A DNA stretch of 64,000 nt from Candidatus Eiseniibacteriota bacterium. GTDB taxonomy: Bacteria > Joyebacterota > Joyebacteria > Joyebacterales > Joyebacteraceae. The stretch is taken from positions 3,232 through 67,231 of the forward strand of contig JAUXGN010000011.1 in NCBI GenBank assembly GCA_030622115.1, read 5' to 3'. Positions 8,638 through 38,094 of this stretch are shown piece by piece (the stretch's first letter is position 1; every line of letters starts with the position of its first letter). Made by a program: the position numbers and the translations under genes. The notes beneath the pieces were generated by a model. That model had not been told where the DNA came from. It saw only the letters and a program-made list of their open reading frames with translations, and did not search any database.

Positions 8638-8639
8638 GC

Positions 8640-16946: not shown

Positions 16947-16981
16947 AAGAGCGGGGGCTCCCGTCGGGAACCCCCGCTCTT
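16947..16981 (-). terminator. Hairpin 22 nt downstream of the last gene of the 17.0-29.2 kb operon
   Basis: AAGAGCGGGGG ... CCCCCGCTCTT, an 11-bp stem. No clear U-tract on the minus strand. Confidence 0.4.
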
Positions 16982-17003: not shown

Positions 17004-19343
17004 TCAGCCCTTCTTGGCCACCGCAAGGGCGACTCTCTCCGCCGTTATCGGCATTGACTTGAGACGTACACCGAGGGCATCGGCGACCGCGTTCGCGATC
17101 ATGGGCGCTGCCGGAATCATCGTGTGCTCCCCCACTCCACGCGCGCCGAATGGGCCGTCAGGCTGAGGGACTTCAATGATGATCGGTATCGTCTCCCGCG
17201 GTACGTCTTTCGCCGTGGGGATCTTGTAGTCCGTGAAGTTGGGGTTCAGAAGCCGCCCATCATCGTCGAAACGCATCTCCTCATATAGAACGGTCGCGAA
17301 CCCCTGAAGAAGACCGCCCGTGATCTGGCCTTTCACGAGGTCCGGATTGATAGCGTGTCCTACATCGACGGCGAGCGCCGTCTTCAGGATCTCCATCTTG
17401 CCCGTCTGTTTGTCTATCTCGAGAACTACTCCGGCCGCACCAACGGTGTAGTGCACGTTCGGGTAACCGCCATGGCTGGTCTCCGGGTCGGACAGCGCCG
17501 AGGTGAACTCCGGCATGAACATCCCGCTTCCCATGATCGGGCCACCGCGGGACGTTCCGTCCTCCATCTGGATTCCGGAGATCACGAAATCCCTGAGAGG
17601 TAGCTCGAAATCCGGCTCTGTCCGGCATTTGACCTTCTCATCTTCGAGGTAGAGCGAGTCCACATTGAATCCGTGCGCGCGGTTCACGACATCAAAGATC
17701 CTGTCGCGCGCCTCCACGGCCGCATCCTTCACGGCATTCCCACAACTCCACGTAATGTGAGAACCTACGGTCTGCCACTCATAGGGATTGCGGTCGGTAT
17801 CCGGAGTTTCGACGCGGATTCTCTCGGGTGGAACCGTCAGGATCTCGGCCGCGATCTGTGCCATCACGGTGAGATAGCCCTGACCGATCTCCATTCCCGA
17901 GACCAGCACGTTTACGCTTCCATCTTCGCTGAACTTGAGAAAGGCGGACGACGATGCGTTCGGGGGCATCGCGGGTGCTTTCCACATGAGCGAGAAGCCC
18001 TTCCCGATCACCTTGTTGGGATCAGTGGACTCCTCGTTCCTTCCCCACTCTATCGCATCTGCCGCCTTATCGATCGCCTCCAGAAGCCCACTCGGATTCA
18101 TCTTCGCTCCGTAGGCAAGCGTGTCCCCCTCCAGAATCGCGTTCTTGCGTCTGAACTCGACGGCATCGATCCCAAGTTCGTTTGCGATCCTCGTTATGTG
18201 CGACTCGAGACCAAAGTGAAACTCAGAGTAGCCGAAGCCCCGGTACGGGCCACCCGGCGGCAGGTTCGTGTAGACGCAGAGTGAATCGATCTTGACGTTT
18301 GGGATTCGGTAAGCGCCTGTCGCGGAGAGACCGACGGCATTGACCACATTCGCGCCATACTCAACATATGCGCCCGCGTCCCAATACATGGTGTACTCGA
18401 TCGCCGTGAGCGTTCCGTCCCGTTTCGCCCCCATCTTGAGCTTGGCCAAGAGCCCTTGGCGCTGGTAGGTGTTGTAGAACTCCTGCTCGCGCGTCCACCT
18501 GAGCTTGACCGGATGCCCCTTGACCGCGGTCGCAAAGGCAGCCACGAGGATCTCCATCGTCACGCCCGCCTTCCCGCCGAAGCCACCACCGACATACGGC
18601 GTCACCACGCGAACGTCCTTGTGCGTGAGACCCAGGGGCGCGAGGGTCGAGGCGAAGACATCGCGCTGTGTGTGCGGGGACTGCGACGCCGACCACAGCG
18701 TGAGTCTGCCGGAGAGATCGTAGAGCCCAACCGCCACGTGTGGTTCTATCGCGCAGTGCGCGTAACGCGGGACGGTGTACGTGTCCTCGATAATGACATC
18801 CGCCTCCGCGAACCCCTTCTCAACATCGCCCTTCCTTGTCTTCCGCAAGTGCGCGATGTTGGTGTCCTTCCTGGGGAAAAACCACGGCACCCGATCGTAG
18901 TCGAAGAGGTCAGGATGAACAAGATCTGCGCCGTCTTTGATCGCCTCTGCTGGATCGAAGATCGGTGGAAGCTTCTCGTAGGTCACCCTGACGAGTTTCG
19001 CCGCGCGCATTGCAGTCTTCAGATCGCGCGCAATGACGCCCGCCACCTGCTCACCAACGAACCGTACCCGGTCCTGCGCGAGGATGTAGCGGTCCTTCAT
19101 GTAAAGCCCGAACTTGTATGGGAAGTCCTTGCCCGTCACGACCTTCAGCACGCCGGGCACGGCCTCGGCTGCGGCTGTGTCGATGCCCTTGATGAGAGCG
19201 TGCGCATGGGGACTTTCCACGACGACGGCATGGAGAAGATCGGGCCCGAAGTCGATGTCATCAACGAACGTGGCGGCGCCGGTCACTTTCTCGGCCCCGT
19301 CAATCCTGCTCGTGGGCTTCCCAACATACTTCAGTTCTTCCAT
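17004..19343 (-). CDS. Xanthine dehydrogenase/aldehyde oxidase-family molybdopterin-binding large subunit (CoxL-like)
   Basis: YVGKPTSRIDGAEKVTGAA N-terminus; GGGFGGK; GPYRGFG; MEIGQG; a C-terminal GEHTM(I)PAAPMIANAV-type motif. Start set to the ATG at 19343 (GAGGA upstream). Confidence 0.9.
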   Translation of the reverse strand: MEELKYVGKPTSRIDGAEKVTGAATFVDDIDFGPDLLHAVVVESPHAHALIKGIDTAAAEAVPGVLKVVTGKDFPYKFGLYMKDRYILAQDRVRFVGEQVAGVIARDLKTAMRAAKLVRVTYEKLPPIFDPAEAIKDGADLVHPDLFDYDRVPWFFPRKDTNIAHLRKTRKGDVEKGFAEADVIIEDTYTVPRYAHCAIEPHVAVGLYDLSGRLTLWSASQSPHTQRDVFASTLAPLGLTHKDVRVVTPYVGGGFGGKAGVTMEILVAAFATAVKGHPVKLRWTREQEFYNTYQRQGLLAKLKMGAKRDGTLTAIEYTMYWDAGAYVEYGANVVNAVGLSATGAYRIPNVKIDSLCVYTNLPPGGPYRGFGYSEFHFGLESHITRIANELGIDAVEFRRKNAILEGDTLAYGAKMNPSGLLEAIDKAADAIEWGRNEESTDPNKVIGKGFSLMWKAPAMPPNASSSAFLKFSEDGSVNVLVSGMEIGQGYLTVMAQIAAEILTVPPERIRVETPDTDRNPYEWQTVGSHITWSCGNAVKDAAVEARDRIFDVVNRAHGFNVDSLYLEDEKVKCRTEPDFELPLRDFVISGIQMEDGTSRGGPIMGSGMFMPEFTSALSDPETSHGGYPNVHYTVGAAGVVLEIDKQTGKMEILKTALAVDVGHAINPDLVKGQITGGLLQGFATVLYEEMRFDDDGRLLNPNFTDYKIPTAKDVPRETIPIIIEVPQPDGPFGARGVGEHTMIPAAPMIANAVADALGVRLKSMPITAERVALAVAKKG

Positions 19344-19381
19344 GGCAGTATCCTCAGGATGCCTGACAATCACGGGATCAC

Positions 19382-19429
19382 GTGTCGCAAGCAGTGTCGC
19401 GAGTCTGTCGCGAGTTGTGTCGCAGGTTT
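19382..19429. repeat. Four tandem 12-nt repeats in the Fic / Mo-subunit spacer
   Basis: GTGTCGCAAGCA / GTGTCGCGAGTC / TGTCGCGAGTTG / TGTCGCAGGTTT. The last unit overlaps the Fic stop codon. Confidence 0.75.
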
Positions 19430-20477
19430 ACTCACCCTTCTCGACGAGTCGATAGAGCACCCTGTCGGCAGCGCCTTCACGGATCAGCAGTTTCTTCTCA
19501 ACCAAGACCTTGAGATCTCGCTCGAGCGACCGTCGTGAGACATCGGGACGAAGAGCCTCAAAATCACGAATCACGAGCGTTCCGTGCTCCAGGACATACT
19601 CCAGAGCCTCCCTTTGCCGCTCGGACAGCCCTCGGCTTCGAACCATCATATCCAGTCTGATCACACGTTCACCGCGGTCCCGCACTTCTCGCATCTGCGT
19701 GGCCAACCCCTCGGTGAAGTACTCCAGCCACTGTGTCATGTCCATATCGTTCTCACGAACACCCTGGATAGCGGAGTAGTAGCCAGGGCGATTCCGATCG
19801 TAGTATTCGCTGATCGTGAAGAGCCGCTTGAAATCGTAGCCTGTCCTGTAGAGGCAGAGCGTCGAGAGCAGACGTGCGGTGCGCCCATTGCCATCAAGGA
19901 ACGGATGGACGTGCACGAGCTGGAACTGAGCGATGCCGGCCACGAGGACCGGATGTGATTCCTGTTCGTTCTGAATCCACTCGACAAGATCGGCCATCAT
20001 CGCCGGCACATCGGGGGCCTGAGGGGGAGTGTAGATGATATCGCCGGTTATGGAGTTCACAACGTAGTTCTGGACCTCCCTGTACTGTCCGGGAGCGGCA
20101 GAGCCCCCACGGACACCGTCAACCAAGCACTTGTGGATCCCTCTTATCAGTCCCTCAGTTACTGGATCTCCACTGTCAAGGTAGTCCGCAACAAGCGAGA
20201 AAGCCTTCCGGTAGTTCAAGAGTTCCTGAGTATCATCTGGATCTGCCCCCGGAGCCGGTTGACCCGACAGGATGAGTCTCGCTTGCTCAAGTGTCAGATG
20301 CGTGCCCTCGATGTGCGTCGTATGATGCGCTTCGAGAACAAGCGCGCGGTCACGCATTCGCCCGATCCATTTCTCAGACAACTTCGCTGCTTCCAGGAAG
20401 CCGCGTGCCCGCTCTATCTGCGTGAGCGCGGCGGCAATCGGGTTGGTTATCTTGAAGACGGGCGCGAAGTTGCTCAT
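19428..20477 (-). CDS. fic: Fic/DOC-family protein (Fido domain plus C-terminal winged-helix), class II-like
   Basis: [14 protein letters not shown] matches HxFx(D/E)GNGRxxR. An N-terminal TTHIEG fits the inhibitory (S/T)xxxE(G/N) helix motif. Its ATG overlaps the stop of the 2Fe-2S subunit gene (ATGA). Confidence 0.9.
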
Positions 20478-20983
20478 CCTGTACTCTCCTCACGGGGGGG
20501 GGGGCCGCTGCGCTGCCGCCTCGCTCTCCCACTCCCAACATCGAGCACGGCCTTGACGATCGGATCGTACCCGGTGCATCTGCAGAGGTTTCCGGAGATG
20601 GCCTCCTTGACCTCGTCCTCCGTCGGGCTCGGATTCCTTGCCAGAAGCTCGGTAGCGGCCAGCACGATGCCGGGGGCGCAGAACCCACACTGGAACGAGT
20701 TGTTATCAATGAAAGCCTGCTGGAGTTCTGTAGGACCGTCTTTCGAGAGCCCCTCGATGGTCACGATGTCGTGACCGTCCGCCTCAACAGCGAGGATGAG
20801 ACAGCTCCTCATGCTTCTTCCGTCAAGCAGAACCGTGCAGCTTCCGCAGTCTCCCCTCTCGCAACCGATCTTCGGACTCTTGATCCCGAGCCTCTCACGG
20901 AGAACCTCGAGAAGGGTCTCGTTCGGCTCGACGTCGATGCTTCGCCCCTCGCCGTTCACATTCAGTGTGATTGATCTCTTCAT
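20474..20983 (-). CDS. (2Fe-2S)-binding small subunit of the molybdo-hydroxylase (CoxS-like)
   Basis: [11 protein letters not shown] and QCGFCAPG...CRCTGY cysteine motifs. Confidence 0.9.
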
Positions 20984-21050
20984 GGCATTCCCCTGAGTGT
21001 CGGCTGCATCTGGCTCCTCGCCTCGAGCGGCTCGCAGCGGGATCCCACTT

Positions 21051-21941
21051 CTAGATCAGCTGCGCACCGTAAGCGGGTCCGTCGCCCGCGAGTCTCGCGA
21101 CCGCCGCCCGCAACCCGCGTTCGAACATGATCGGAAGCATGTGCTCACGGTACTCGCGGCTTGCGCGGATGTCGGCTATGGGAGAGGTCTCGTCGGGAAC
21201 GAGCTTCTTCGCGTCATCGATGAGCGCGTCGCCAAAGACCTTCCCTCTGAGAAGCTCCTCGATCCTGTTCGCGCGTAGTGGCGTGGGAGCAACTGCTCCG
21301 AACGCGATGCGGTATTCACTGTCCGGAAGAGCCAGGACGGCGACACTTGCCTGAGCGAGATCCTCACCCCGGTAGCGGCCAAGCTTGACGTACGCTGCGC
21401 CGTGCTCTTCCTGAGGAATGGGAAGCGACACCGATGTCACGATCTCAGCACTCCCGAGTGCCGTCGTCTTCGGCCCGGTGAACCACTCGGCGACCGGCAT
21501 GGTCCTCTCCCCGTTCGGCCCCGTAGCGTGAATGCTCGCGCCCAGGACGAGAAGAACAGGACCGCTGTCGCACGACGGCACCGCCGAGCAGATATTGCCT
21601 GTGATCGTCGCCCTGTTCCTGACGCCGACCGAGGCGACCGTCATTGCCATCTCGCGGAGGAGTGGTACGTGTTTCTGAACAAGCTCTGATTCGATGAGAT
21701 CAGTGAAGGTCGCAAGAGCCCCGACTCGAAGGGCGTTCTCCTCGCGCTTGATCCCAGACAGTCCCGCGATCCCCTTGATGTCGACAACAAGCTTTGGGCT
21801 AACGAGACCATCCCTGAGCCCCGGAACAACATCGGTCCCGCCGGCGAGCACCTGCGCATCGGTTCCGTGCTTGTTCAGGATCCCGACAGCCTCCTCAATC
21901 GTTTCAGGCTTCGCGTACTCGAACTCGTGTGCTATCGGCAT
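21051..21941 (-). CDS. FAD-binding medium subunit of the molybdo-hydroxylase (CoxM-like)
   Basis: VLAGGTDVVPGLRDG, a GNICSAVPSCDS-type segment, and a C-terminal ...DIRASREYR. Confidence 0.85.
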   Translation of the reverse strand: MPIAHEFEYAKPETIEEAVGILNKHGTDAQVLAGGTDVVPGLRDGLVSPKLVVDIKGIAGLSGIKREENALRVGALATFTDLIESELVQKHVPLLREMAMTVASVGVRNRATITGNICSAVPSCDSGPVLLVLGASIHATGPNGERTMPVAEWFTGPKTTALGSAEIVTSVSLPIPQEEHGAAYVKLGRYRGEDLAQASVAVLALPDSEYRIAFGAVAPTPLRANRIEELLRGKVFGDALIDDAKKLVPDETSPIADIRASREYREHMLPIMFERGLRAAVARLAGDGPAYGAQLI

Positions 21942-21953
21942 ACGCTGCTCCTC

Positions 21954-22772
21954 CTACTTCGGTGGCAGCATCGCCACGATGCGACACATCGACGACTCAA
22001 GCTCAATTCCACGAAGCGGGAAGCACCCTATCCAGCAACGCTCGTTCTTGATCTTGTCGATCTCGCCGCCGAGATTCTCCGCGTGGACGAGTCCCTTCGG
22101 GAAGAGCTTGAGATGCATCACCTGGTAGTAGATGTCCGGCGGGAACATCTCGTCCCAGCTCTTGCCGTAGTCCTTCTGAAGCTTCGCCTCGGCCTTCGTG
22201 AAAAGACCGGGGTGCCAGTCCTTGATGATAGTGTTCATCGGGTGGTCGGCGCTCCCGCAATCGACGCCGATCCACTTGAGGTTCATCTTGAGCGCCCACT
22301 TGTGGAATTCAGGGTCGGGCCCCGGGTGCTTCACAAAGTAGCGGATCTCATCGGAGCGCTTCTGATCCCAGGCGTACTTGTGATAGCCGGTGTTGATTAT
22401 CAGTATGTCGCCCTTCCTGACATCGACGCGATCGGTGATCATCTTGGGCGAGTAGAGGCTGTAGTCCTTGACGGAGTCCGAGATGTCGACGACGACACCG
22501 GGGCCGATCCACTCGCCGAGCGGCACATCACCGATCGTGCGTCCGCTCGGGTGGAAGTGGATCTCGCCGTCCATGTGCGTGCCGACGTGATTGCTCGTCG
22601 TGATGATCTGGCCGTTCGCGCCCTGCCCCATGTGCGCGCCGGCGATCCGCTTGAAGTACTGTATGCCGAGAGGCATGTAGCTCGGCCACGGTGGTGTGTG
22701 AATCGACAGCCGCTGCGTAAGATCGTAGACCCTGACATCGTCCATGAACTCGAGGAACTTCTTGGTGTTCAT
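21954..22772 (-). CDS. Cyclase-family (kynurenine-formamidase-like) metal hydrolase
   Basis: NHVGTHMDGEIHF resembles the HxGTHxDxPxH cyclase/arylformamidase motif. Confidence 0.8.
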   Translation of the reverse strand: MNTKKFLEFMDDVRVYDLTQRLSIHTPPWPSYMPLGIQYFKRIAGAHMGQGANGQIITTSNHVGTHMDGEIHFHPSGRTIGDVPLGEWIGPGVVVDISDSVKDYSLYSPKMITDRVDVRKGDILIINTGYHKYAWDQKRSDEIRYFVKHPGPDPEFHKWALKMNLKWIGVDCGSADHPMNTIIKDWHPGLFTKAEAKLQKDYGKSWDEMFPPDIYYQVMHLKLFPKGLVHAENLGGEIDKIKNERCWIGCFPLRGIELESSMCRIVAMLPPK

Positions 22773-22854
22773 GTCGCACCCTCCCTGGATGATCGCTTCC
22801 CGTGCCTCTGTGCTATTCCGCGTCTGGTTCGCGTTCCGTACGGACCATCTTCAT

Positions 22855-24261
22855 TCACCTCGCAAGCCGGGCCGCCAGTCCTTCGAACGCCCTCGTGAAC
22901 GGCTCCGCTGATGCCGTCAGAACTCCCGCGCCGACCTGCCCGACGCCGGGTTCGCGGTGGGCGACTCCGGTGTCGATGAACGGGAGTATGTTCTTTGTGA
23001 TGACCTTGACTACGTCGATCCCAGTCGGCGTCCCACGGAAATTGAGATACGGAATCTGGTAGACGGTGTTCTCCGCAGCAGCGATCTCATACATCTCGAG
23101 CGTGTACTGGATCGCGTCCGAAGTCGTCCCGCCCACGAACTGCACGATCGCGGGCGAAGCGGCGATGGCGAATCCACCCAGTCCGTTCGTCTCCGTGATC
23201 GAGCTGTCGCCGATATCCGGATTGGCATCCTCCTTCGTGTAGCCCGGGAAGAAGAGCGCGTCCGGGACATCAGCGGGGCCCACGAACCACTCGTCTCCCG
23301 TTCCGGAGAGCTGGATCCCGAAATCCGTTCCGTTCCTGGTCATCGCGATGACGACACTGCTGCCCGGCACGTCGCGCGCGGCATCGAGCGTCACCTTGCA
23401 CGCCGGCATCGAGAGATTCAGGAAGAAGTGGTCGTTTCCGTTGATGAATTCGAGAACCTCGACTGCGGCCTTGCTGTCGCTGCATGACCTGACGATTGCG
23501 GGAGCCATAGCGCGATAAAGGAGCGACGTCGCAGCTCTGTTGCGGTTGTGGACCTCGTCTCCCATGTGAAGCGCCTGCGCCATCAGGTTCTTGAGATCGA
23601 TCGGGCCAGTGGTCACAATCGCGCCCTCGAGCACCGGATAGAGCACCGAGTCCATCCATCGGAGCTTCTCGATCACCTCGGAGGCGAAGGCGCCGTAGCG
23701 GAGCACCTTCCCCAGTCCTTCGTTCATCGTGCAGTACGCCTGGTTACCGAACTCCTCATTCCTAAGCACGAAGACCGGCATGGAAGGCATCACGATTCCC
23801 GCCATCGGGCCGACCGTGCTGTGCTCGTGGCACGGCGCGTACTCGATCTCACCCGATGCCGCGAGTATCTCCGCATCATCCGGTGTCTTCGCCTTCCCCT
23901 CATAGATGAGGCCGCCGATAATGGCGCCCCGCATCGGCCCGCACATCCGCTCCCACGTTATCGGTGGTCCGGCGTGAAGGATCAGGTTCGGCTTCATTCC
24001 GGGGATCACGTCGATTGCGCGCGCTAGACTCACGAGCTGCGGCATGCCCCTCAGGATGATGTCCATGACCGTCGCATTCGCCGCATCTATCTCTTCGGCG
24101 TGCTCTGCCACGATGCGCCGCGACTCGTCCGAGACATCCATCGGCGGACGCCAGTCAACCTGCACTGCCGTAGCTCCGACCTCGTCCAGGCTCTCCTTGA
24201 ATGAGGATAGGCCTATGTTCACTACCTTGAGTTCCTGCTTGAAGAGATCACCAACCGGCAT
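22855..24261 (-). CDS. DUF1116 protein (YlbE/AllG-like)
   Basis: N-terminus MPVGDLFKQELKVVNIGLSSFKESL...VQVDWRPP and its position next to FdrA, as in E. coli fdrA-ylbE-ylbF. Its ATG at 24261 shares 1 nt with the FdrA stop. Confidence 0.7.
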   Translation of the reverse strand: MPVGDLFKQELKVVNIGLSSFKESLDEVGATAVQVDWRPPMDVSDESRRIVAEHAEEIDAANATVMDIILRGMPQLVSLARAIDVIPGMKPNLILHAGPPITWERMCGPMRGAIIGGLIYEGKAKTPDDAEILAASGEIEYAPCHEHSTVGPMAGIVMPSMPVFVLRNEEFGNQAYCTMNEGLGKVLRYGAFASEVIEKLRWMDSVLYPVLEGAIVTTGPIDLKNLMAQALHMGDEVHNRNRAATSLLYRAMAPAIVRSCSDSKAAVEVLEFINGNDHFFLNLSMPACKVTLDAARDVPGSSVVIAMTRNGTDFGIQLSGTGDEWFVGPADVPDALFFPGYTKEDANPDIGDSSITETNGLGGFAIAASPAIVQFVGGTTSDAIQYTLEMYEIAAAENTVYQIPYLNFRGTPTGIDVVKVITKNILPFIDTGVAHREPGVGQVGAGVLTASAEPFTRAFEGLAARLAR

Positions 24262-25799
24262 CACTTCACCCCCAGCTTCCGGGCAACGAGCCCTGCTATT
24301 CTGCAAGCGGACAGGTTGGATCCGGCGATGATGGCGCCCGCGCCTTCGAGAGCCTCATGTACGGCGCGCCGGTTCTGAGGATCCCGGTCCGTCCCGGTGA
24401 TCGAACAGACCACGGCCACCTTGCTCACTGCGTCGCGTATGACTTGATCGAGTTCGGACGCAGGATCCAGGTTGGAGCCATACCCAAGAACGACATCCAG
24501 AAGGATAACGGCCACGTCCGGATCGTTCGCCTCGCCAGCGATTCGCTTCACCCTCAGCGAGTAGTCGATCATCGGGTGCGGGCGACCGACGGTGAATTCG
24601 TCGGAGCCGAGATCGACGATCGTGTTCGCAACGCTCCGGAGCGGGTCGTCAAGCTTCGTCGCACGCCCGGACGGAACATTGGAGTGAACGTCATTGAGAC
24701 CAAGATCAGCGAAAACGATCTCCGCCTCTGATGCGAACGTCCCGCCGCTCATGAGAGCGCGGACGTATCGCTGCCCGTTCGACCTCTCCGCCACGATTCT
24801 CTCGACGAGTTCGGCCTCCCGATCATCGCCGCCGAGGAGCAGCCCCCTGACGCCATCCGGCTCTCTCCCGACCGCAACTGTCACCGCACGAAACGCCGCC
24901 TCGGCAAGCGTACGACATCCGTTTGGTCCTTCGGGCTCAGTTCCCAGGAAGACCGACACGACCGGCTGCTCTATCTTCGCAAGCTTCTTCCTGATCCTGT
25001 CAAGAACCTCACCGTCCGGCGGCTTCGACACGAGAACGATCACCTCGGTCTCAGCATCGTCTGCGAGTGCCTCGAGACCGTCCAGGAAGGTGACGCCGCC
25101 GACGGCGTTCACAACATCGTGCCCGCCTGTTCCTACCGCCTGAGAGATCCCCGAGCCGAGGTTCGAGACGAGCGTGCTCACTTCCTGCAACCCTGTTCCC
25201 GATGCCGCCACGATCCCGATCGGACCACGGTTGACGGCATTTGCGAAGCCGAGGGGAACGCCGTTGATGATCGCCGTTCCGCAGTCGGGCCCCATCACAA
25301 ACAGGCCCAGGCCGTGCGCGCGGGTTTTAAGTTCCACCTCGGTCTCAAGCGGTACGTTGTCGGAGAAGAGCATCACGTGAAGCCCGCGATCGAGTGCCCG
25401 TGCCGCAACATCCCCGGCGTAGCGACCGGCCACGGATATGAGTGCGAGGTTCGCGTCCGGGACGACATCGAGCGCTCCGTCGAGGCTTCTGGGAGTGAAT
25501 GCCTCACCGTCGTCAACGGTGCCTCTCACATTCTCGAGAAGCTCGTCGACGGCGATCAGCGCCGCCTCCGCGATTTCGTCGGTCTCGGCTCTTACACCGA
25601 TCAGAAGATCAGTGTCGGATGAATTCTCGAACTCGGACGTCAGGAGATCGGCCGCGCTGAGAATCGCCCGGTTCTCGTCCGTTCCCATGACGACGGCCGC
25701 GTCGGCGACGCCCTCCATGTAAGAGAGCTCCCTCGCCACGTTCATGAGCGTGACGGAATCGAAGTACGCACCCTTCTTGATGCGTCCCACTACGACCAT
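24261..25799 (-). CDS. fdrA: FdrA-family protein (succinyl-CoA-synthetase-alpha-like CoA-binding protein)
   Basis: MVVVGRIKKGAYFDSVTLMNV N-terminus; IGIVAASGTGLQEV and GHDV...GG segments. Start set to the ATG at 25799 (GGAGG upstream). Confidence 0.85.
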   Translation of the reverse strand: MVVVGRIKKGAYFDSVTLMNVARELSYMEGVADAAVVMGTDENRAILSAADLLTSEFENSSDTDLLIGVRAETDEIAEAALIAVDELLENVRGTVDDGEAFTPRSLDGALDVVPDANLALISVAGRYAGDVAARALDRGLHVMLFSDNVPLETEVELKTRAHGLGLFVMGPDCGTAIINGVPLGFANAVNRGPIGIVAASGTGLQEVSTLVSNLGSGISQAVGTGGHDVVNAVGGVTFLDGLEALADDAETEVIVLVSKPPDGEVLDRIRKKLAKIEQPVVSVFLGTEPEGPNGCRTLAEAAFRAVTVAVGREPDGVRGLLLGGDDREAELVERIVAERSNGQRYVRALMSGGTFASEAEIVFADLGLNDVHSNVPSGRATKLDDPLRSVANTIVDLGSDEFTVGRPHPMIDYSLRVKRIAGEANDPDVAVILLDVVLGYGSNLDPASELDQVIRDAVSKVAVVCSITGTDRDPQNRRAVHEALEGAGAIIAGSNLSACRIAGLVARKLGVK

Positions 25800-26863
25800 T
25801 GTGCCTCCCTGTCGTGCTGAACACTGGTGCCCATCATGCGCCCTACGATCGCCCCATGGAGACGAGCTTGCCAGGACACGAGCGTCATCTGAAGACCGAC
25901 CGCCATGTCGGCGCCGGACGTCGCTCCAACCGAGAAGAGATGCTCCGCACACCTTCTCACATCCCCGGGTGTGCCAAACGAGAGCGCTGCCACGAGATCC
26001 TTCATGCCCTGTGTGACAAATCCGCCTTCGGCGAGATAGAGGAACGTGTCGGACAGGGTGTTTCCGCTGCGCGCAGTCTCGAAGATGCGTGTGCGAAGGA
26101 GCGCAAGATTGCGCCCAAGCGCTGATCCGGCGGCGCTTCGCTTCGATGATGCTCCGGTGGCAGACACCGACCGCGCTCCAGCGCGCACCGGCTCTACCGA
26201 TCTCTCGAGAATGTGCGTGGCGATGAGTAGTCCGACTATGAAGTCGTCACCGGCCGGAGTGAGTCCAAAACCGCAACCCTTGAGCCGCTCCACCCCCCTG
26301 AGTGTGTCCCCGTGGAGGATGTCACGAACGGAGTGCCCGATGTGGTCAACAACGGCACGTTCGAACCCGGCCCTGAATTCCGCGAGCCTTTCGCGTTCAA
26401 GCAGGAACGCCAGGCTCTTCTCAGGAGCCAGCTCTGCGAGGAGAAGCCCGAGAATGCCGAGGTTCTTTCTGAAGCGCGGGAGAGTGTGTGGCTGGAAATC
26501 GATAGCTGATTTGTAGATACGGCCGCCATCAAGAGGGATGCGACGACCATCGAGGGTAATCGTCCAGCCGGGACAGAGGGAAATGTCACCGTCATCGGGG
26601 GAGGTCGCTCCGTCGCAGGGCGTCCCTGCGCCCATCTCTATCGTAAGGCCCTCGACCCCGGACGGATCGAGTCCGCGCACGACGATTGTAAGGGGTCCCG
26701 CGTCGATATCCGGAGTGACAAGCGAGACGAATCTGCCGTTGTCCGTCATGTTGACGACGCGCGTGAAGCGCGAGTGAACGTGGTAGAATCCGCTCTCTAC
26801 GAGGTCACCGAAGCTCACGATTTCGATCATCTCACGCGGCACGACCATGACCAATCCCTTCAA
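25790..26863 (-). CDS. DUF2877-like protein (YlbF/AllH-like), assignment tentative
   Basis: Position immediately upstream of, and overlapping, fdrA by 10 nt. N-terminal ...HVHSRFTRVVNMTDNGRFVSLV pattern. Recognised by context and pattern only. Confidence 0.5.
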   Translation of the reverse strand: MKGLVMVVPREMIEIVSFGDLVESGFYHVHSRFTRVVNMTDNGRFVSLVTPDIDAGPLTIVVRGLDPSGVEGLTIEMGAGTPCDGATSPDDGDISLCPGWTITLDGRRIPLDGGRIYKSAIDFQPHTLPRFRKNLGILGLLLAELAPEKSLAFLLERERLAEFRAGFERAVVDHIGHSVRDILHGDTLRGVERLKGCGFGLTPAGDDFIVGLLIATHILERSVEPVRAGARSVSATGASSKRSAAGSALGRNLALLRTRIFETARSGNTLSDTFLYLAEGGFVTQGMKDLVAALSFGTPGDVRRCAEHLFSVGATSGADMAVGLQMTLVSWQARLHGAIVGRMMGTSVQHDREAQWS

Positions 26864-26929
26864 ACTGCGGCGAATCGTTCAAGCACACGCACGGCGCCCA
26901 GAGCAGCAAGTCGCTCAAGCCGCCGTCCC

Positions 26930-27277
26930 CTACGCCTCGCGGAATACCATCCCGTAGTACTTCTCGTACTCCTCGCTCCTGACGACCTCGACCTCTCCTA
27001 TCACCTTCATCCCACTCGCCGGTTCGTCTATCTGGAGCTGCCCCGTAATCCTGATACCGTTCTCGAGCTCAACGATACCAAGCCCGAGCGTCGGCACCTC
27101 AAAGTCCCCCGGAAGGGCGTAGAGCTCGGTGAACGTGACAAGCGTGCCTGCCTTCGGCAACGGCTCCGGATCGAATTCGTTGTGCTCGTTCTCGCCGCAC
27201 TTGGCGCAGACCATGCGGTACGGGTAGTGAAGATGCCCGCACTTCCTGCACCGGTAGGCGTAGATCTCTCGCTTCAT
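26930..27277 (-). CDS. DUF35 Zn-ribbon/OB-fold protein (thiolase partner)
   Basis: MKREIYAYRCRKCGHLHYPYRMVCAKCG rubredoxin-like knuckle followed by an OB-fold. Start set to the ATG at 27277 (GGGAGA upstream). Confidence 0.8.
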   Translation of the reverse strand: MKREIYAYRCRKCGHLHYPYRMVCAKCGENEHNEFDPEPLPKAGTLVTFTELYALPGDFEVPTLGLGIVELENGIRITGQLQIDEPASGMKVIGEVEVVRSEEYEKYYGMVFREA

Positions 27278-27279
27278 TG

Positions 27280-28455
27280 TCAGTTCTCCCTCGCGAACGT
27301 GAGGCACACAACGTTGTTTCCGAAGCCTCCGAAGTTGCACGTGAACCCGATTTTCGGGTCGGCGACCTGTCGCTTGCCCGCCTCACCACGAAGCTGATGC
27401 ACGATCTCATAGGCCTGAGCAACACCGGTCGCCCCGACCGGGTGACCACGCCCCTTGAGCCCTCCGGACGGGTTGATCGGGATCTTCCCTCCGATCTGAG
27501 TCTCACCACGCTCGAGTGCCAGGTGCCCTTCACCCTTCTTGAAGAAACCGACCTCCTCGCTCTCAACGATCTCGAGGATCGTGAATGCGTCGTGGAGTTC
27601 GGCCACTCCAACGTCCGAAGGCCCAACGCCTGCCATTTCGAACGACTGGGCCGCGGCGCGTCTGACCGCAAGAAGGTCCGTAGGTTCATCGCGTTCGTGC
27701 ACGCAGTGCGTGTCGGTCGCCTGCCCAATCCCCGACAGTCTGACGAGAGGTCTGCCCGTCTTCTCTGCGACCTCGCGCGTAGCGAGGATCACACTTGCGC
27801 CTCCGTCCGAGACGGGACAGCAGTCAAAGAACCTGAGTGGATCCGCTATGTACGGGTTGTTCGTCAACGCCTCCGGTGAATCGAGGATGCCCTCGACCGT
27901 GATCGCCTGCTGGATGTGCGCAAACTCGTTCAGAAGAGCGTTGTTCTGATTCTTGACCGCGACCATCGCCAGATGACGCGACGTGACACCGTACTTGTCC
28001 ATGTAGGCCCTCGTGAACATACCGGCCAGCGATGGGAGGGTCACACCGTAGATGTACTCGGCCAGTGGGTGCGTGAGTGTCGCCACGAACTCGGTGACCT
28101 CGAGGTTGTTGACCTCGCGCATCCTCTCAGCTCCCGTCACCGCCACGACATCGTGCACGCCTGACGCGACCGCCAGAAACCCCTGCTTGATCGCGGACCC
28201 GCCTGAGGCCGGACCATTCTCGATGACGTCCGCCCCAGCCGGAGTCAGGCTCAGTGTATCGACAACGGCGCTGGCAAGCCCGGTCTGGTGGTTCACCCGA
28301 CCGCCACCCATGTTGGCAACATAGAGGTGGTCTATCTCTTTGATGCCGGCGTCCTTGAGCGCCATCATCACCGGATACGCGGCGATCTCGGAGAGTGGGA
28401 ACTCGAGACGGGTAAAGGAGGTGATGCCGATTCCGATTGCGTAGACGTCTCTCAT
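27280..28455 (-). CDS. Thiolase-domain protein (archaeal/SCP-x-like type)
   Basis: Thiolase-like N- and C-terminal halves (NPSGGLKGRGHPVGATG, CNFGGFGN). Paired with DUF35. Confidence 0.85.
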   Translation of the reverse strand: MRDVYAIGIGITSFTRLEFPLSEIAAYPVMMALKDAGIKEIDHLYVANMGGGRVNHQTGLASAVVDTLSLTPAGADVIENGPASGGSAIKQGFLAVASGVHDVVAVTGAERMREVNNLEVTEFVATLTHPLAEYIYGVTLPSLAGMFTRAYMDKYGVTSRHLAMVAVKNQNNALLNEFAHIQQAITVEGILDSPEALTNNPYIADPLRFFDCCPVSDGGASVILATREVAEKTGRPLVRLSGIGQATDTHCVHERDEPTDLLAVRRAAAQSFEMAGVGPSDVGVAELHDAFTILEIVESEEVGFFKKGEGHLALERGETQIGGKIPINPSGGLKGRGHPVGATGVAQAYEIVHQLRGEAGKRQVADPKIGFTCNFGGFGNNVVCLTFAREN

Positions 28456-29207
28456 TTCCCCTCCTTCTCATGCTGCATCCACCGCTGGAGTATGAGAGCC
28501 GTGCCGGTCGGGTCGTACATGGAGCGGGTCGCCGCGAGAAGATCCTCGGGCGGCGTCGGCGGATCTGAAGGCGGGAGGATCGCTTCCATCGCCTTCGCCA
28601 GAAGAGCATCCGGAACGGGGCGTCTGCCGATCACAAGCGTGCCGCGCGCCTTCTCGAAGATATCTTTCGTGAGCGCGTAGGAGGGCGGACCGCCCAGTTC
28701 GTGCGGGATCTCAAAGCGCTTCTCGAGGTTGTACTCGATCATCCAACGCCTGAACCCGATCGGTGACTCGGCAACGATAAGGACTTCCTTATGACCCAGG
28801 ATGTCCATGTGATACTCCATCTTCGTCGCGAAGGCGTGGGCGCCGATACGAAGCCCGCGGCGGAGGGCCAGAGTGTGAAGCGACATCCCCGTACCATCAC
28901 CCACGCTGCGCCCGTTCACAACGGCGCAGAGTTCGCCGTCTATCTGGGCCACAAGCACGTACTCGTCCTGCATGCGGTGCCGGTAGTATGCGAGAAGCTC
29001 CGCGTAGACGCGCGCGGCGACAACATCGTAGAAATCTCTCTCGACGGACATGAGAGGGGCGACATGTATGAGGATGTCCGGGATCTCGTCCCGCGTGACC
29101 TGCCGGATGACCATCTCCTCCCCGCTCGCGATCGTCATGTACTTGGGCGGAAATGGGGGCATCTCGTGATCAACAGGACGGAGGATCTTCTCGAGGTCAA
29201 CGGGCAT
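28452..29207 (-). CDS. Hypothetical protein, possibly GNAT-fold; first gene of the operon
   Basis: ATG at 29207 with AAGGAGA upstream and a 4-nt overlap with the thiolase gene. No diagnostic motif recognised. Confidence 0.55.
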   Translation of the reverse strand: MPVDLEKILRPVDHEMPPFPPKYMTIASGEEMVIRQVTRDEIPDILIHVAPLMSVERDFYDVVAARVYAELLAYYRHRMQDEYVLVAQIDGELCAVVNGRSVGDGTGMSLHTLALRRGLRIGAHAFATKMEYHMDILGHKEVLIVAESPIGFRRWMIEYNLEKRFEIPHELGGPPSYALTKDIFEKARGTLVIGRRPVPDALLAKAMEAILPPSDPPTPPEDLLAATRSMYDPTGTALILQRWMQHEKEGK

Positions 29208-29397
29208 AATGCGTCTCCTTCGGAGTCTGGGCGAAGCGCTCTACAAGGGGATTCCCTACGATTGACTATGCGGTACAGCAAGAATAGCAGGAACCGGATG
29301 TCGGGACAAGGAGTGGTAAGGCCGGCAGCGAGGCCGGTATGAAGCATCAGGCGGACAGGGGGCATCAGACAGACAAGGGCGTCACCATCCGCTCCAT

Positions 29398-30903
29398 CTA
29401 TCTCCACCGCGCCCAATCTGTTGGGAAATCGGCCGGAAGACGGATCACTTCAAAGAGACTGGCGATGTACTCCCGTTTCGTCCCTGTCTGTGCGGGGTTC
29501 ACGTACTTCCATACGGTGGTCCCATCCGGGGTGACCTCGAAGGCTTTCCCCCGGTCAGTCTCGGTAATGAGAGTGTTGCCATTCGGAAGTCGTATGCTGG
29601 AACCACACTCCCTTGACCGAAAGTCCACCGGATTCATGCCCTGATAGATCCAGACCGCGCTCCCGGCAACCACGTCAAGCTCGATGACCCTGGAAGCTCC
29701 CTCGTTCCCCCGGTTATCGAAGATCATCATGTGTCCGTTCTCGAGGATGGTCGCCTGGTGCGGTGCACCCCAGCCCCCCGCCAGTGCCCACACGGCGCTC
29801 TCTTCCTCCATATCGATAACGGCAACGAGATCGAGTTCCCTGATGGTCACAAGGACGAAGCCTTTCCGGAAGGCGGGGATCTCATCGGAGAGCTTTCCAT
29901 CGAGCACCTCGACGGTGTTCGTGTGGAAGATGTCCCCCGACTCCTCGGCAAGGTCGAGTGCCCATGCGTATTCGGAATTCTCGAGCGCATCGAGGATCGA
30001 GACACGTCTGAGTTCCTCGCCGTCAGAGTTCAGAACGGCGATGTAGTCCTCGAGGATGGCGTGATCGGGATTGTACCTGGGCACGATGTGCGCCTCGCGG
30101 GTCAGCACATAGATGGTCCCATCATCCATGACATCAAGGTCATGATGGAATCCACCGAGGTTTGCCCAGATGAGCCTGGAGTCCTTGTCGACTTTGACGA
30201 TGGCGAGTCCATCGAACACCGCCAGGACATCACCGTTCTCGAAGAGGTGGGCGCGCCGCCAGAAGCCCGAACCCTTGGCTGAAGCTCGCAGCTTGGGGCG
30301 CGAACTCTGTTTCCATGCGCTCATGTAGCTGTATGCCCACTTGTGGAGAACGTTGCCCTCCATGTCCATGAGTACCGCCCCCGGCGCGTCTCCCGTGGTG
30401 TAGAAGTTGAGCCCGTCCTGCGTGCGTGGCCTGTCGTAGACCGTGACGCCCGAGAGCAGCGGCGCCGGCTGCGATCCGGACAGGTACCCGATCGACCTCA
30501 GCCGCTCGATCTCGGCCTCCTGCTCAGGCGTGAGGCCCATCTGTTCATCGAAGGGGATCTCCCTCCAGTCATCGACATGCCAGCGACCGTGCGGCTTCTC
30601 CCACTCAGCGATGACATCAAGGGCATCACTCGGACCGTCTGGCGCAACAGTTCCCCTCGAATCGCCCGGCGGAACGCTCCCGCGCGGACCGGCTCGCACC
30701 AGGTGGAACACGACGACCGCAAGCACGCAGCACGCCACCGCTCCCACGACAATCCACAGCCACCGCACATTCGGCTTCACCTGGATCTCCTCCGCGTACG
30801 CATGGCCGGTCCCGGTCCCTTCTCCCAAGCGCCCCGGTGCCCGCAGAAGCCCTCTGCTCGAAGGCTCGCTCAATGTCATCGTACCACATCTCCAGGGCTT
30901 CAT
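29398..30903 (-). CDS. Arylsulfotransferase (ASST)-like beta-propeller protein with N-terminal membrane anchor
   Basis: TM segment WLWIVVGAVACCVLAVVVF; FHHDLDVMDDGTIYVL, IFHTNTVEVLDG and NGNTLITETDRGKAFEVTPDG patterns. The start may instead be the ATG at 30879. Confidence 0.65.
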   Translation of the reverse strand: MKPWRCGTMTLSEPSSRGLLRAPGRLGEGTGTGHAYAEEIQVKPNVRWLWIVVGAVACCVLAVVVFHLVRAGPRGSVPPGDSRGTVAPDGPSDALDVIAEWEKPHGRWHVDDWREIPFDEQMGLTPEQEAEIERLRSIGYLSGSQPAPLLSGVTVYDRPRTQDGLNFYTTGDAPGAVLMDMEGNVLHKWAYSYMSAWKQSSRPKLRASAKGSGFWRRAHLFENGDVLAVFDGLAIVKVDKDSRLIWANLGGFHHDLDVMDDGTIYVLTREAHIVPRYNPDHAILEDYIAVLNSDGEELRRVSILDALENSEYAWALDLAEESGDIFHTNTVEVLDGKLSDEIPAFRKGFVLVTIRELDLVAVIDMEEESAVWALAGGWGAPHQATILENGHMMIFDNRGNEGASRVIELDVVAGSAVWIYQGMNPVDFRSRECGSSIRLPNGNTLITETDRGKAFEVTPDGTTVWKYVNPAQTGTKREYIASLFEVIRLPADFPTDWARWR

Positions 30904-34128: not shown

Positions 34129-34145
34129 GGCCTTCCTCCCGTAGC

Positions 34146-35447
34146 TCAGAAGCTGTACTTGGCCCTCACCCAGATCTGATCGTTGTCGTCGTACGAGCCG
34201 AATCTTCCGCCATCTCCGCTGAGAAAGTCCATCCCCCCGGAGATGTGGAGTGCATCCGCAAGCTCATAGTCAGCAGCCATCCGCGCGTACCGGTCGTTGT
34301 CACTCAGGCCGAAGTACGCCATCCCGGACAGCTCGAGGCTCTCTCTGAGGAACGTCTTCGAGACGCTCGTGGTGACGAGCATCGTGTGCTCGTCGTCCGC
34401 GATCGCCTCCTCATAGTCAAGGATGAGGCCGTCGACGAACTGCGCAGTGATGGTCCAGTTGCGTCCGGGACTCCAGTCCGCCCCAAGCATCCACTTGAGA
34501 ACGTCTCTTTCGAACACCTCTTCCGAAAGCTCGTCCGTGGGCTCGAAACAGAGCCCGGTGAAGTAGGCCGCCTCCGCGCGGAGAACGATATCACCCCACG
34601 GCTTTGACAGCTCCGCTCCATAGAAGGTCGTACGCTCATACTCCGGATGGAAGCTGACCCGAACGGAATCGCCTTGCGACACCACGTCCCGATACGCCGT
34701 GGGAGTATCGTGCCACGTGCGAAAGCAGGAGATCGCGACGTCGACCGCCGACGTGTAGATGCTCGCCTTAGCGGCGAACTCACCGTTCTCCAGATTGAAC
34801 TCCGGCTCCGATACCGCCTGGTACTCGACGTCCACGCCGGCGGGGAACTCGGTCTCTCTGAACCACGGGCTTCCCTGTGGCGGGAGCGCGGCCGGGATGA
34901 ACCGCGGCAGCCAGATGAACTCCAGGTCGAAGCTGTTCCCCAGGTATCGCCACTTCGCCGCATCTACCGGTATCCGGGTATCGTCGTATTCCGCTGCGAA
35001 GAACTCCGCGTGGTCGCGCGGACAGATGATGTCTGTTATAGCCAACCCGTCCGCCTTGCCCCACACGATGATCTGGCGTCCGACTCTCAGATCCCAGCTG
35101 TCCGCTACGTACTCGATGAACGCCTCGCGGAGTTCCACTCCCTTCTCGCCGGGGACTACGCCGTCTTCTGTGGCATTCACGCTCAGGTACGCCCAGGTCT
35201 CTCCCTCGCACATCCAGCTCTCGATGCGCGCCCGGGTTCTGGAGGTGATGAAATCATGCGGTTCCCCGAATCGCACGCCGTAGTGGGAATCGACAAAGCC
35301 GTGTGTGTCGAATTCGGCCGCCTGGGCCTCATCCGGCGAAAACGGAAGAAGGGAGGTGATCAAGGCCAGGGCCACCGTGATTGCGGCCGGCGCTGTGATC
35401 CGGATGGCCGCCGCAACGGTCGCCGATGCCACAGTCCGGATGGTCAT
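34146..35447 (-). CDS. Outer-membrane beta-barrel protein (DUF1302/alginate-export-like)
   Basis: Signal-like N-terminus, RVGRQIIVWGKADG motif, terminal ...RAKYSF. ATGA overlap with the upstream gene. Confidence 0.6.
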   Translation of the reverse strand: MTIRTVASATVAAAIRITAPAAITVALALITSLLPFSPDEAQAAEFDTHGFVDSHYGVRFGEPHDFITSRTRARIESWMCEGETWAYLSVNATEDGVVPGEKGVELREAFIEYVADSWDLRVGRQIIVWGKADGLAITDIICPRDHAEFFAAEYDDTRIPVDAAKWRYLGNSFDLEFIWLPRFIPAALPPQGSPWFRETEFPAGVDVEYQAVSEPEFNLENGEFAAKASIYTSAVDVAISCFRTWHDTPTAYRDVVSQGDSVRVSFHPEYERTTFYGAELSKPWGDIVLRAEAAYFTGLCFEPTDELSEEVFERDVLKWMLGADWSPGRNWTITAQFVDGLILDYEEAIADDEHTMLVTTSVSKTFLRESLELSGMAYFGLSDNDRYARMAADYELADALHISGGMDFLSGDGGRFGSYDDNDQIWVRAKYSF

Positions 35448-36238: not shown

Positions 36239-36291
36239 GTCGGACCTCCTGTCTCAAAAACGAACATGGTTTAGCCGCGTTCCAAAAAAAA

Positions 36292-36927: not shown

Positions 36928-36996
36928 GCCGTGCCGCCCGTCTGTAGTCCCAACGTGATGGCTCCACACCCAACAACGAATGCTGTTCTCTATACA

Positions 36997-38020: not shown

Positions 38021-38094
38021 GGTTTGTTCTCCCTTCGGACTGCGTGGCCGGCTGGGAATTCCCCAGTCAAATCTGCGACGGAATCCCATGCGCC

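Follow-up and report, generated by a model that had tools for sequence, protein, structure and literature searches.

What could a bacterium do with a molybdenum (Mo) hydroxylase, a cyclase-family hydrolase, an FdrA/DUF1116/DUF2877 complex and a thiolase/DUF35 pair that are all encoded in one operon? The question is raised by 11 minus-strand open reading frames (ORFs) that fill positions 17004-29207 of a 64-kb stretch of contig JAUXGN010000011.1 from Candidatus Eiseniibacteriota, referred to here as the window. The original prediction, made from the sequence alone, knew of no described pathway that uses all of these modules, and our full-text searches found no description of the cluster in the literature. 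Using comparative genomics (sequence and gene context), which is the basis of every pathway step given below, we propose with a confidence of roughly 60% that the operon encodes oxidative catabolism of uracil and thymine via barbiturate in anaerobes. The enzyme formed by the Mo, iron-sulfur (FeS) and FAD subunits would hydroxylate uracil at C6 to yield barbiturate, and thymine to yield 5-methylbarbiturate. The cyclase-family hydrolase would open barbiturate to ureidomalonate, filling the role of barbiturase without being related to it. A YahEFG-type complex of the DUF2877 (H), FdrA (F) and DUF1116 (G) subunits would convert ureidomalonate and phosphate to carbamoyl phosphate and malonamate, replacing the hydrolytic ureidomalonase. 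In the established oxidative pathway for pyrimidines, uracil is converted to barbiturate and then to ureidomalonate (PMC3758960).

Conservation of the cluster across phyla

Gene starts were refined with the gene calls of a 93%-identical relative (L082), start codons and ribosome-binding sites, and domains were assigned with Pfam and NCBIfam profiles. The ORFs and profiles bear out an operon of 11 same-strand genes with the domains that had been named for it, and ten of the 11 assignments were matched by Pfam or NCBIfam (Table 1). Conservation was assessed in 80 related loci from a homologue scan, with one genome per species and more than a dozen phyla, and presence or absence was scored by tblastn with all window proteins. 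FdrA was found in 70 of the 80 loci, the cyclase in 65, the FAD and FeS subunits in 56 and the Mo subunit in 50. FdrA, DUF1116, cyclase, FAD, FeS and Mo proteins occur together in 46 loci, where they are mostly colinear; many contigs among the remaining loci are truncated. In many loci DUF2877 has diverged too far to be found by tblastn, but Pfam locates it directly upstream of FdrA. The usual gene order is DUF2877-FdrA-DUF1116-cyclase-FAD-FeS-Mo, and in Elusimicrobiota the two halves of the core are exchanged in order.

Three further genes of the operon encode a GNAT-like protein, a thiolase-like protein and a DUF35 protein. This trio is joined to the six-protein core in 16 of the 80 loci and is found in 20-22 loci overall, either upstream of the core or, in some Cloacimonadota, 3′ of the Mo gene. 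Median identity across phyla is unusually high, at 77% for the cyclase, 72% for the Mo subunit, 79% for the thiolase-like protein and 76% for the GNAT-like protein. The hosts include Eisenbacteria, Verrucomicrobiota, Elusimicrobiota, Cloacimonadota, Ignavibacteria, Bacteroidales, Kiritimatiellia, Bdellovibrionales, Acidobacteriota and others, and the closest loci are in metagenome-assembled genomes (MAGs) of Candidatus Eisenbacteria. Co-conservation is far beyond chance, and ten of the 11 genes form one conserved unit, with the Fic gene as the exception. Greedy clustering of neighboring ORFs, a noisy procedure in high-GC DNA in which real genes are displaced by antisense ORFs, revealed no additional family conserved beside the cluster across phyla.

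The Fic gene was found in two of the 80 loci, as well as in the close relatives L082 and L083. Its product has the N-terminal TTHIEG element and the motif HPFLDGNGR (family HPFx[D/E]GN[G/K]R), and scores 66.6 bits against the Pfam Fic model. Other inserts occupy the same FeS-Mo junction elsewhere: a PD-(D/E)XK_3 protein in Cloacimonadota and a trypsin-like peptidase in one MAG. Inserts at this junction lie at 19428-20477 in the window and at L009:14126-14503, L016:11765-12142 and L005:5614-7056. Because Fic is confined to close relatives and unrelated inserts are found at the same junction in other genomes, we place it outside the conserved system, so that co-occurrence holds for ten of the 11 genes that had been grouped together.

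Evidence bearing on the substrate

The cyclase carries the PF04199 domain (117 bits) with an intact metal motif, HVGTHMDGEIH (HxGTHxDxxxH), and is 72-98% identical across the 65 loci that encode it. The family includes the ring openers isatin hydrolase and dihydrophloroglucinol cyclohydrolase (PMC10470551). With these enzymes and with kynurenine formamidase the window protein shares PF04199 and the metal motif, and a ring-opening role is predicted for it. It differs in that its similarity to solved members is weak and N-terminal, with PDB matches of this kind only, to kynurenine formamidase (E ~1e-9), and in that barbiturate would be a new substrate for the family. The presence of isatin hydrolase in this family would also fit a route through indole, oxindole and isatin, in which the Mo enzyme hydroxylates indole and an isatin-hydrolase-type cyclase follows. 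We give this route almost no weight, as it leaves unexplained the transcarbamylase-type trio of FdrA, DUF1116 and DUF2877, as well as the amidases, uracil-type permeases and barbiturase replacement described below. Isatin hydrolase is not among the PDB sequence matches of the window cyclase, and that identity was rejected on this ground.

The predicted barbiturate substrate derives from a replacement of the cyclase gene. Acidimicrobiia contigs L092-L095, reached through homologues of the GNAT-like protein, have the gene order AtzD-family hydrolase, DUF2877, FdrA, DUF1116, FAD, FeS, Mo, GNAT-like, thiolase-like, DUF35 and NCS2 permease. Their proteins are 73% (Mo), 75% (thiolase-like), 76% (GNAT-like) and approximately 70% (FeS) identical to those of the window. 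No cyclase is found in these clusters, which are headed by the AtzD-family gene instead; conversely, the 64-kb window has no AtzD-family gene and a cyclase-family gene in its place. Against the solved barbiturase 5HWE the AtzD-family protein reaches 535 bits, whereas its scores with cyanuric acid hydrolases do not exceed 315. At the five positions that separate barbiturase from AtzD (Peat et al., PMC3758960), it has Asn, His, Lys, Val and Ala, the full barbiturase signature. Because a barbiturase stands in for the cyclase in otherwise orthologous clusters, we infer that the ring opened by the cyclase is barbiturate.

The same protein exceeds the NCBIfam cut-off for cyanuric acid amidohydrolase (456 vs 360), and allFGHK adjoins biuret hydrolase genes in nitrifiers (PMC12625717). 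Both observations would be compatible with degradation of cyanuric acid or another triazine, where ring opening is followed by phosphorolysis of biuret or carboxybiuret by the H-F-G complex. However, the protein is nearer to barbiturase and has five of the five signature residues, which led us to reject cyanuric acid degradation. A triazine pathway also has no role for the Mo hydroxylase or for the malonamidase-like amidase, and we consider it highly improbable. AtzD-family ring-opening amidohydrolases are also encoded on many enterobacterial plasmids.

Other genes near the cluster point to pyrimidines as well. NCS2 permeases adjoin it in Cloacimonadota, Acidimicrobiia and one Acidobacteriota genome, and those that were scored reach 338-344 bits with the uracil permease (UraA) model versus 205-223 with that for xanthine permease. 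An amidase follows the core in nine loci, with malonamidase E2 as its closest relative of solved structure (E = 3e-47), and a CN-hydrolase closest to the omega-amidase-type model PRK10438 lies between the Mo gene and DUF2877 in nine Elusimicrobia loci. Eight loci encode a CoA-transferase of family III that most resembles those for oxalate and dicarboxylates. Judged by these relatives, the amidase, CN-hydrolase and CoA-transferase would supply the activities needed for a dicarboxylate monoamide such as malonamate.

Similar combinations occur in more distant genomes. On haloarchaeal megaplasmids, full-length cyclase homologues (46-48% identical) adjoin the S, L and M subunits of xanthine dehydrogenase (XDH)-family enzymes, XdhC and SLC23/NCS2 transporters, and in Halostagnicola they are also found near cytosine deaminase and codB. 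The cultured actinomycete Embleya sp. has, within 25 kb, an AllFGH-like trio, an NCS2 permease, an XDH-like enzyme, a CN-hydrolase and a family III CoA-transferase, and in the same 25 kb a barbiturase-like gene (70% identical to that of L092) directly beside carbamate kinase. The haloarchaeal and Embleya contexts support the logic of the module rather than orthology. A context on Rhodococcus ruber plasmid pmega_2 (L085/L087) was rejected as an ortholog: the cyclase homologue there is 38% identical and lies amid Rieske dioxygenases and nitrilase-type hydrolases, and two DUF1116 genes are located close to genes for formate dehydrogenase and malate synthase. Five lines of context that are independent of one another (the barbiturase swap, the permeases, the accessory genes, the haloarchaea and Embleya) converge on the substrate. 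The choice of N-heterocycles that the original prediction left open-ended therefore gives way to uracil and thymine via barbiturate, as indicated by the barbiturase replacement, the uracil-type permeases and the malonamidase-like amidase.

The Mo subunit contains three XDH-family domains, and the domains of all three hydroxylase subunits score above Pfam cut-offs. Its best NCBIfam score is to 4hydrxCoA_A (507 vs a cut-off of 995), and it falls below every equivalog cut-off (XdhA, PucD, 4-hydroxybenzoyl-CoA reductase [4-HBCR], CODH, PaoC and glyceraldehyde dehydrogenase), as does the 2Fe-2S subunit. Aligned to the 4-HBCR alpha subunit (1rm6), the protein retains GARGVGEHT, with its GVGE, and ASQSPH; we take GxGE to be the catalytic Glu motif and the Gln of ASQSPH to lie near the Mo=O group. 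After GGGFGGK it has Ala, at a position that we take to be the substrate-binding Glu802 of bovine xanthine dehydrogenase. Since the Glu802 equivalent is absent and the XdhA and PucD scores are far under their cut-offs, a canonical xanthine dehydrogenase was rejected. The Mo subunit is 67-81% identical in the 50 loci that encode it, within which range the barbiturase-containing Acidimicrobiia clusters also fall. From genomic context only, we infer that the Mo enzyme is a uracil/thymine dehydrogenase.

The similarity to 4-HBCR raises the possibility that the substrate is an aromatic CoA ester, with a 4-HBCR-like Mo enzyme, FdrA as an acyl-CoA synthetase and a BbsAB-like thiolase/DUF35 pair. The alpha subunit of 4-HBCR is the best solved relative of the Mo subunit (350 bits), 4hydrxCoA_A is the top NCBIfam match, and the DUF35 protein weakly matches BbsA (NCBIfam). 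The scores, however, are about half of the cut-offs, and the FAD subunit is CoxM-like. At 296 aa it is colinear with the 287-aa CutM, whereas the 324-aa 4-HBCR beta subunit (HcrB) aligns with it over residues 3-119 only. The beta subunit of 4-HBCR carries an extra 4Fe-4S insertion, and the window FAD subunit lacks it as judged by this alignment, a difference that led us to reject 4-HBCR identity. A reductive role like that of 4-HBCR appears unlikely although this enzyme is the closest solved relative. With no beta-oxidation genes in the cluster, a thiolase that lacks its Cys (see below) and neighbors related to nucleobases, an aromatic CoA ester is a very unlikely substrate, and we favor the pyrimidine pathway.

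The YahEFG-type complex and the thiolase-like module

The FdrA protein passes the NF004760 cut-off (456 bits vs 433) and shares 39-42% identity with AllF and YahF of E. coli and with Peptoclostridium FdrA. The FdrA family is related to the alpha subunit of succinyl-CoA synthetase. DUF1116 matches PF06545 (AllG) at 330 bits; its identity is 45% with both AllG and YahG, and 54% with a Peptoclostridium acidaminophilum protein. The window DUF1116 protein has more than 8000 homologues at 65-94% identity across phyla, of which the best 120, from several phyla, are 70-94% identical; within this clade mean column identity across phyla is 80%, with very many invariant residues. An exact-sequence look-up of the window DUF1116 protein gave no match. 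On many conjugative plasmids of E. coli, Klebsiella and Citrobacter, DUF1116 proteins are approximately 50% identical over the full length, with two matching places listed per record. DUF2877 matches PF11392 (AllH) at 62.6 bits; it shares 26% identity with AllH of E. coli and 25% with the Peptoclostridium counterpart, and the stop codon of its gene overlaps the FdrA start by 10 nt.

These matches uphold the three families named in the original prediction, which spoke of a proposed role in oxalurate/oxamate conversion. That role is no longer merely proposed: purified E. coli AllFGH (FdrA-YlbE-YlbF) is an oxamic transcarbamylase that converts oxalurate and phosphate to carbamoyl phosphate and oxamate, and allFGH is co-transcribed with the carbamate kinase gene allK (PMC11326118). 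The window operon encodes the same three families together (39% identity for F, 45% for G and 26% for H), and the predicted chemistry, phosphorolysis of an N-carbamoyl amide, would be the same. Ureidomalonate (H2N-CO-NH-CO-CH2-COO-) is oxalurate (H2N-CO-NH-CO-COO-) plus one methylene and would for this reason be a natural substrate for an AllFGH paralogue. Several features set the two systems apart. The E. coli order is F-G-H and that of the window H-F-G; the window G subunit has a ~70-aa N-terminal extension, as in YahG, that is absent from E. coli AllG (L081:8358-9617); the E. coli genes are linked to allK and allantoin genes, whereas the window cluster has neither; and the predicted substrate is ureidomalonate rather than oxalurate.

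In gene order the window trio resembles E. coli YahEFG and a Peptoclostridium acidaminophilum operon, both H-F-G, with similar protein lengths (~290-316, 512-515 and 468-475 aa). The Peptoclostridium operon, which among cultured organisms provides the best DUF1116 match, encodes a PucR regulator, two 'xanthine permeases', a cysteine hydrolase, DUF2877, FdrA, DUF1116 and carbamate kinase, and so links nucleobase permeases to the complex. Unlike the window cluster, the YahEFG and Peptoclostridium operons carry carbamate kinase (yahI and arcC, respectively) and have no Mo hydroxylase or cyclase. The YahEFG-type trio is thus repeatedly tied to nucleobase uptake and carbamoyl phosphate. In E. coli K-12, yahE-yahJ (L088:5926-12508) comprises the chromosomal paralogues yahEFG followed by yahI (carbamate kinase) and yahJ (amidohydrolase); YahEFG is uncharacterized.

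A purine or allantoin-type pathway, in which a xanthine-type Mo enzyme is combined with H-F-G acting on oxalurate and with oxamate hydrolyzed and activated as oxalyl-CoA, is consistent with the AllG and AllH Pfam matches, with FdrA above its cut-off and with a linked CoA-transferase closest to oxalate CoA-transferase. NCS2 permeases carry purines too, and those of the Peptoclostridium operon are annotated for xanthine. Nevertheless, tblastn with AllK, AllC, AllD and AllE found no homologue anywhere in the 64-kb window and none within 10 kb in the 80 loci, on which basis the allantoin/oxalurate pathway was rejected; the absence of carbamate kinase noted in the original prediction is confirmed by the same search. 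The Ala after GGGFGGK and the XdhA and PucD scores also speak against purines, and the permeases favor the uracil over the xanthine model, the amidase is closest to malonamidase and orthologous clusters contain barbiturase. We therefore regard a purine substrate as quite improbable. The reductive uric acid pathway has a different gene set (XdhD, YgfK, SsnA and YgeW/X/Y; PMC12507026).

The remaining three proteins of the conserved unit are the least familiar. The 251-aa product of the first gene has no Pfam, NCBIfam or PDB-profile sequence match, and none of its ~1882 homologues (75-94% identity) has a Pfam domain. An AlphaFold model built with 22 homologues (pLDDT 71) matched GNAT acetyltransferases in Foldseek (E ~1e-4, TM 0.36-0.56), and RRGLRIGA is a partial match to the usual GNAT Q/RxxGxG/A motif. 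The earlier label of a GNAT-like hypothetical protein may thus hold at the level of fold, but not of sequence family. This gene always adjoins that for the thiolase-like protein, whose best PDB matches are archaeal acetyl-CoA acetyltransferases (259 bits). Where 7yvy has IEAACASGG, the window protein has IENGPASGG, and the Pro that replaces the nucleophilic Cys is invariant in 28 of 28 homologues, from every phylum. The GHP His motif (GHPVGATG) is conserved, and the second Cys position (TCNFGG) varies among C, V, L and T. The DUF35 gene starts at 27277, with a ribosome-binding site, 2 nt past the thiolase-like stop codon.

Because the nucleophilic Cys is absent, a covalent acyl-enzyme and thiolysis are unlikely, and with them the CoA-dependent C-C cleavage of the BbsAB or acetoacetyl-CoA thiolase kind that had been suggested for this pair. 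As in the archaeal acetoacetyl-CoA thiolase-HMGCS-DUF35 complex, BbsAB and Ltp2-ChsH2, a thiolase-fold protein has a zinc-ribbon/OB-fold DUF35 protein as its partner. The window protein differs by its Pro for Cys, in which respect it resembles the non-thiolytic Ltp2, and the third partner is a GNAT-like protein of an unnamed family rather than the HMG-CoA synthase (HMGCS) of the archaeal complex. The Ltp2 aldolase is a non-thiolytic thiolase-fold enzyme paired with DUF35, and cysteine-less ketosynthase-type decarboxylases are also known. By analogy, the thiolase-like protein may be more comparable to enzymes of these two types.

The missing Cys also bears on the route first put forward for the operon, in which some other N-heterocycle is hydroxylated, its ring opened and the product cleaved thiolytically at a C-C bond by thiolase/DUF35. 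The domain content permits such a route, the Mo subunit falls in no characterized subfamily and the cyclase family has ring-opening hydrolases. We nevertheless consider it unlikely, given Pro in place of the thiolase Cys in all 28 homologues, a full-signature barbiturase in orthologous clusters, and uracil-type permeases and a malonamidase-like amidase that mark a specific substrate. Each of the rival explanations fails at least one direct test.

For oxidative pyrimidine catabolism, the fate of malonamate would differ between lineages. In other genomes it may be handled by the malonamidase-E2-like amidase or the omega-amidase-like hydrolase together with the family III CoA-transferase; in the window genome, the trio (26930-29207) would be the likely agent. 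In Cloacimonadota, the trio and a CoA-transferase/amidase pair occupy the same site 3′ of the Mo gene in different genomes, which suggests that they are alternative solutions to one step. We speculate that the trio carries out a non-thiolytic, possibly decarboxylating conversion of the malonyl unit towards acetyl-CoA without ATP. A doubtful further step would be to view the whole as an energy-conserving fermentation of pyrimidines, which would unite three as yet undescribed enzyme functions: a cyclase-type barbiturate hydrolase, a YahEFG-type ureidomalonate transcarbamylase that retains the ureido group as carbamoyl phosphate, and an ATP-free, non-thiolytic and possibly decarboxylating trio converting malonamate or the malonyl unit to acetyl-CoA. 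On this view, the oxidative pathway would be a common means by which anaerobes of sediments and digesters use nucleic-acid bases.

The known oxidative pyrimidine pathway of Rhodococcus and a few other aerobes is regarded as rare, with AtzD/Bar homologues in 3% of genomes (PMC3758960). The cluster resembles it in the predicted intermediates from uracil through barbiturate to ureidomalonate, in a multi-subunit dehydrogenase at the first step and in the genuine barbiturase of orthologous clusters. It differs in that the window ring opener is of the cyclase family, in that the classical hydrolysis to urea and malonate would be replaced by phosphorolysis with a three-subunit AllFGH/YahEFG-type enzyme, and in that the hosts are mostly uncultured anaerobes. 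The succession of Mo-dependent ring hydroxylation, hydrolytic opening and an FdrA/DUF1116/DUF2877 step, as originally outlined, fits the comparative data. The idea that the route is uncharacterized applies to the enzymes, which differ from the known ones or are unassigned, but not to the biochemically known uracil/thymine-barbiturate pathway onto which the cluster probably maps. The first two reactions would be known chemistry; what would be new are the sequence of the Mo uracil dehydrogenase, the cyclase-type barbiturase, the transcarbamylase in place of ureidomalonase and the module of a cysteine-less thiolase fold, DUF35 and GNAT-like protein, along with the breadth of distribution among anaerobes.

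Several observations weigh against this pathway. The Mo subunit reaches no curated equivalog cut-off, and its closest solved relative acts on a CoA ester. The DUF1116 and FdrA proteins of L092-L095 are more divergent from those of the window (50% and 41% identical, respectively) than the proteins listed above. A uracil-type permease is adjacent in some lineages only, with none in the 64-kb window, and the XDH-family enzymes that adjoin cyclase genes in haloarchaea, like that of Embleya, share no more than 26-30% identity with the window Mo subunit. The lack of a linked carbamate kinase leaves the fate of carbamoyl phosphate unexplained, unlike in E. coli allFGHK, and the operon offers the trio neither an evident CoA thioester source nor an evident CoA-activating enzyme.

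Operon layout, surroundings and implications

The genes of the operon and the structures at its 3′ end are listed in Table 1. The original prediction described tight packing, with overlaps of 1-10 nt and gaps under 90 nt. This description agrees with junctions of -4, +2, -10, -1 and -4 nt and gaps of 12, 67, 82 and 84 nt; the DUF2877 gene is preceded by a gap of 81-177 nt, according to which of its possible starts is taken. Hairpins were also said to bracket the operon. Two strong hairpins are present on the 3′ side, in a region with z = -6.25, but no unusual structure was seen in the intergenic region 5′ of the first gene (29208-29400; z = +1.4).

Table 1. Genes and hairpins of the operon, in order of transcription (window positions).
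Feature	Position	Strand	Remarks
GNAT-like 251-aa protein, unnamed family	28452..29207	-	First operon gene; member of conserved trio
Thiolase-fold protein without nucleophilic Cys	27280..28455	-	Thiolase_N + Thiolase_C_1
DUF35 protein, Cys4 zinc ribbon + OB fold	26930..27277	-	zf-ChsH2 + OB_ChsH2_C
DUF2877 (AllH/YahE-like) subunit	25790..26848	-	PF11392 AllH; start uncertain (26848, 26830 or 26752)
FdrA (AllF/YahF-like) subunit	24261..25799	-	NF004760
DUF1116 (AllG/YahG-like) subunit, 468 aa	22855..24261	-	PF06545 AllG
Cyclase-family metallohydrolase, predicted barbiturate ring opener	21954..22772	-	PF04199
FAD subunit of molybdenum hydroxylase (CoxM/CutM-like)	21051..21941	-	FAD_binding_5 + CO_deh_flav_C
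2Fe-2S subunit of molybdenum hydroxylase	20474..20983	-	Fer2 + Fer2_2
Fic-domain protein, lineage-specific insert	19428..20477	-	Fic + Fic_N
Molybdopterin-binding large subunit, predicted uracil/thymine dehydrogenase	17004..19343	-	Ald_Xan_dh_C + MoCoBD_1 + MoCoBD_2
16-bp GC-rich hairpin	16947..16981	-	Begins 23 nt past Mo-subunit stop codon
Second hairpin, bidirectional terminator-like	~16700..16743		Between operon and convergent gene 15416-16654

The genes on either side are unrelated to the cluster, and the ASST-like, MMPL-group, convergent and malic enzyme genes described here were not found beside it in the 80 loci. Convergent with the operon is a 412-aa ORF (15416-16654, plus strand) for which neither Pfam nor NCBIfam gave a match and of which the 80 loci contain no homologue. 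Further downstream are two full-length tandem malic enzyme genes, 27 nt apart (11174-12931 and 12959-14623, minus strand), and an acetate kinase gene (9581-11032, plus strand) that adjoins them. Positions 6656-9350 (minus strand) encode a radical-SAM-like protein (weak match), a pyridine nucleotide-disulfide oxidoreductase and an isochorismatase-family hydrolase; genes of the isochorismatase family also occur close to the cluster in three other loci, and the Peptoclostridium operon has a member that shares 31% identity with the window protein. On the upstream side, the operon adjoins an arylsulfotransferase (ASST)-like gene (29398-30903, minus strand), which is retained in L082 and absent from all 80 other loci. 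Beyond this gene is a separate apparent operon (31795-36969, minus strand) for an MMPL/RND-type transporter, DUF1302, a LolA-like/DUF1329 protein and a TetR regulator, and farther on are genes for a CbiX-like protein and for a TonB-dependent receptor containing a CarboxypepD_reg domain (37064-40515).

The pyrimidines in dead biomass make up a large store of nitrogen and carbon. Their anaerobic breakdown is normally ascribed to the reductive pathway, and the oxidative barbiturate route has been held to be a rare aerobic curiosity. If our proposal is correct, thousands of genomes, from more than a dozen phyla that are mostly uncultured, would encode the oxidative route in a phosphorolytic form. 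The molybdenum uracil dehydrogenase would gain a sequence, and a second, unrelated barbiturase would be identified. The proposal would also flag a conserved three-protein module of a Cys-less thiolase fold, DUF35 and an unnamed GNAT-like family. Finally, it would propose a substrate for a large DUF1116/DUF2877/FdrA clade and give a first functional lead for E. coli yahEFG.

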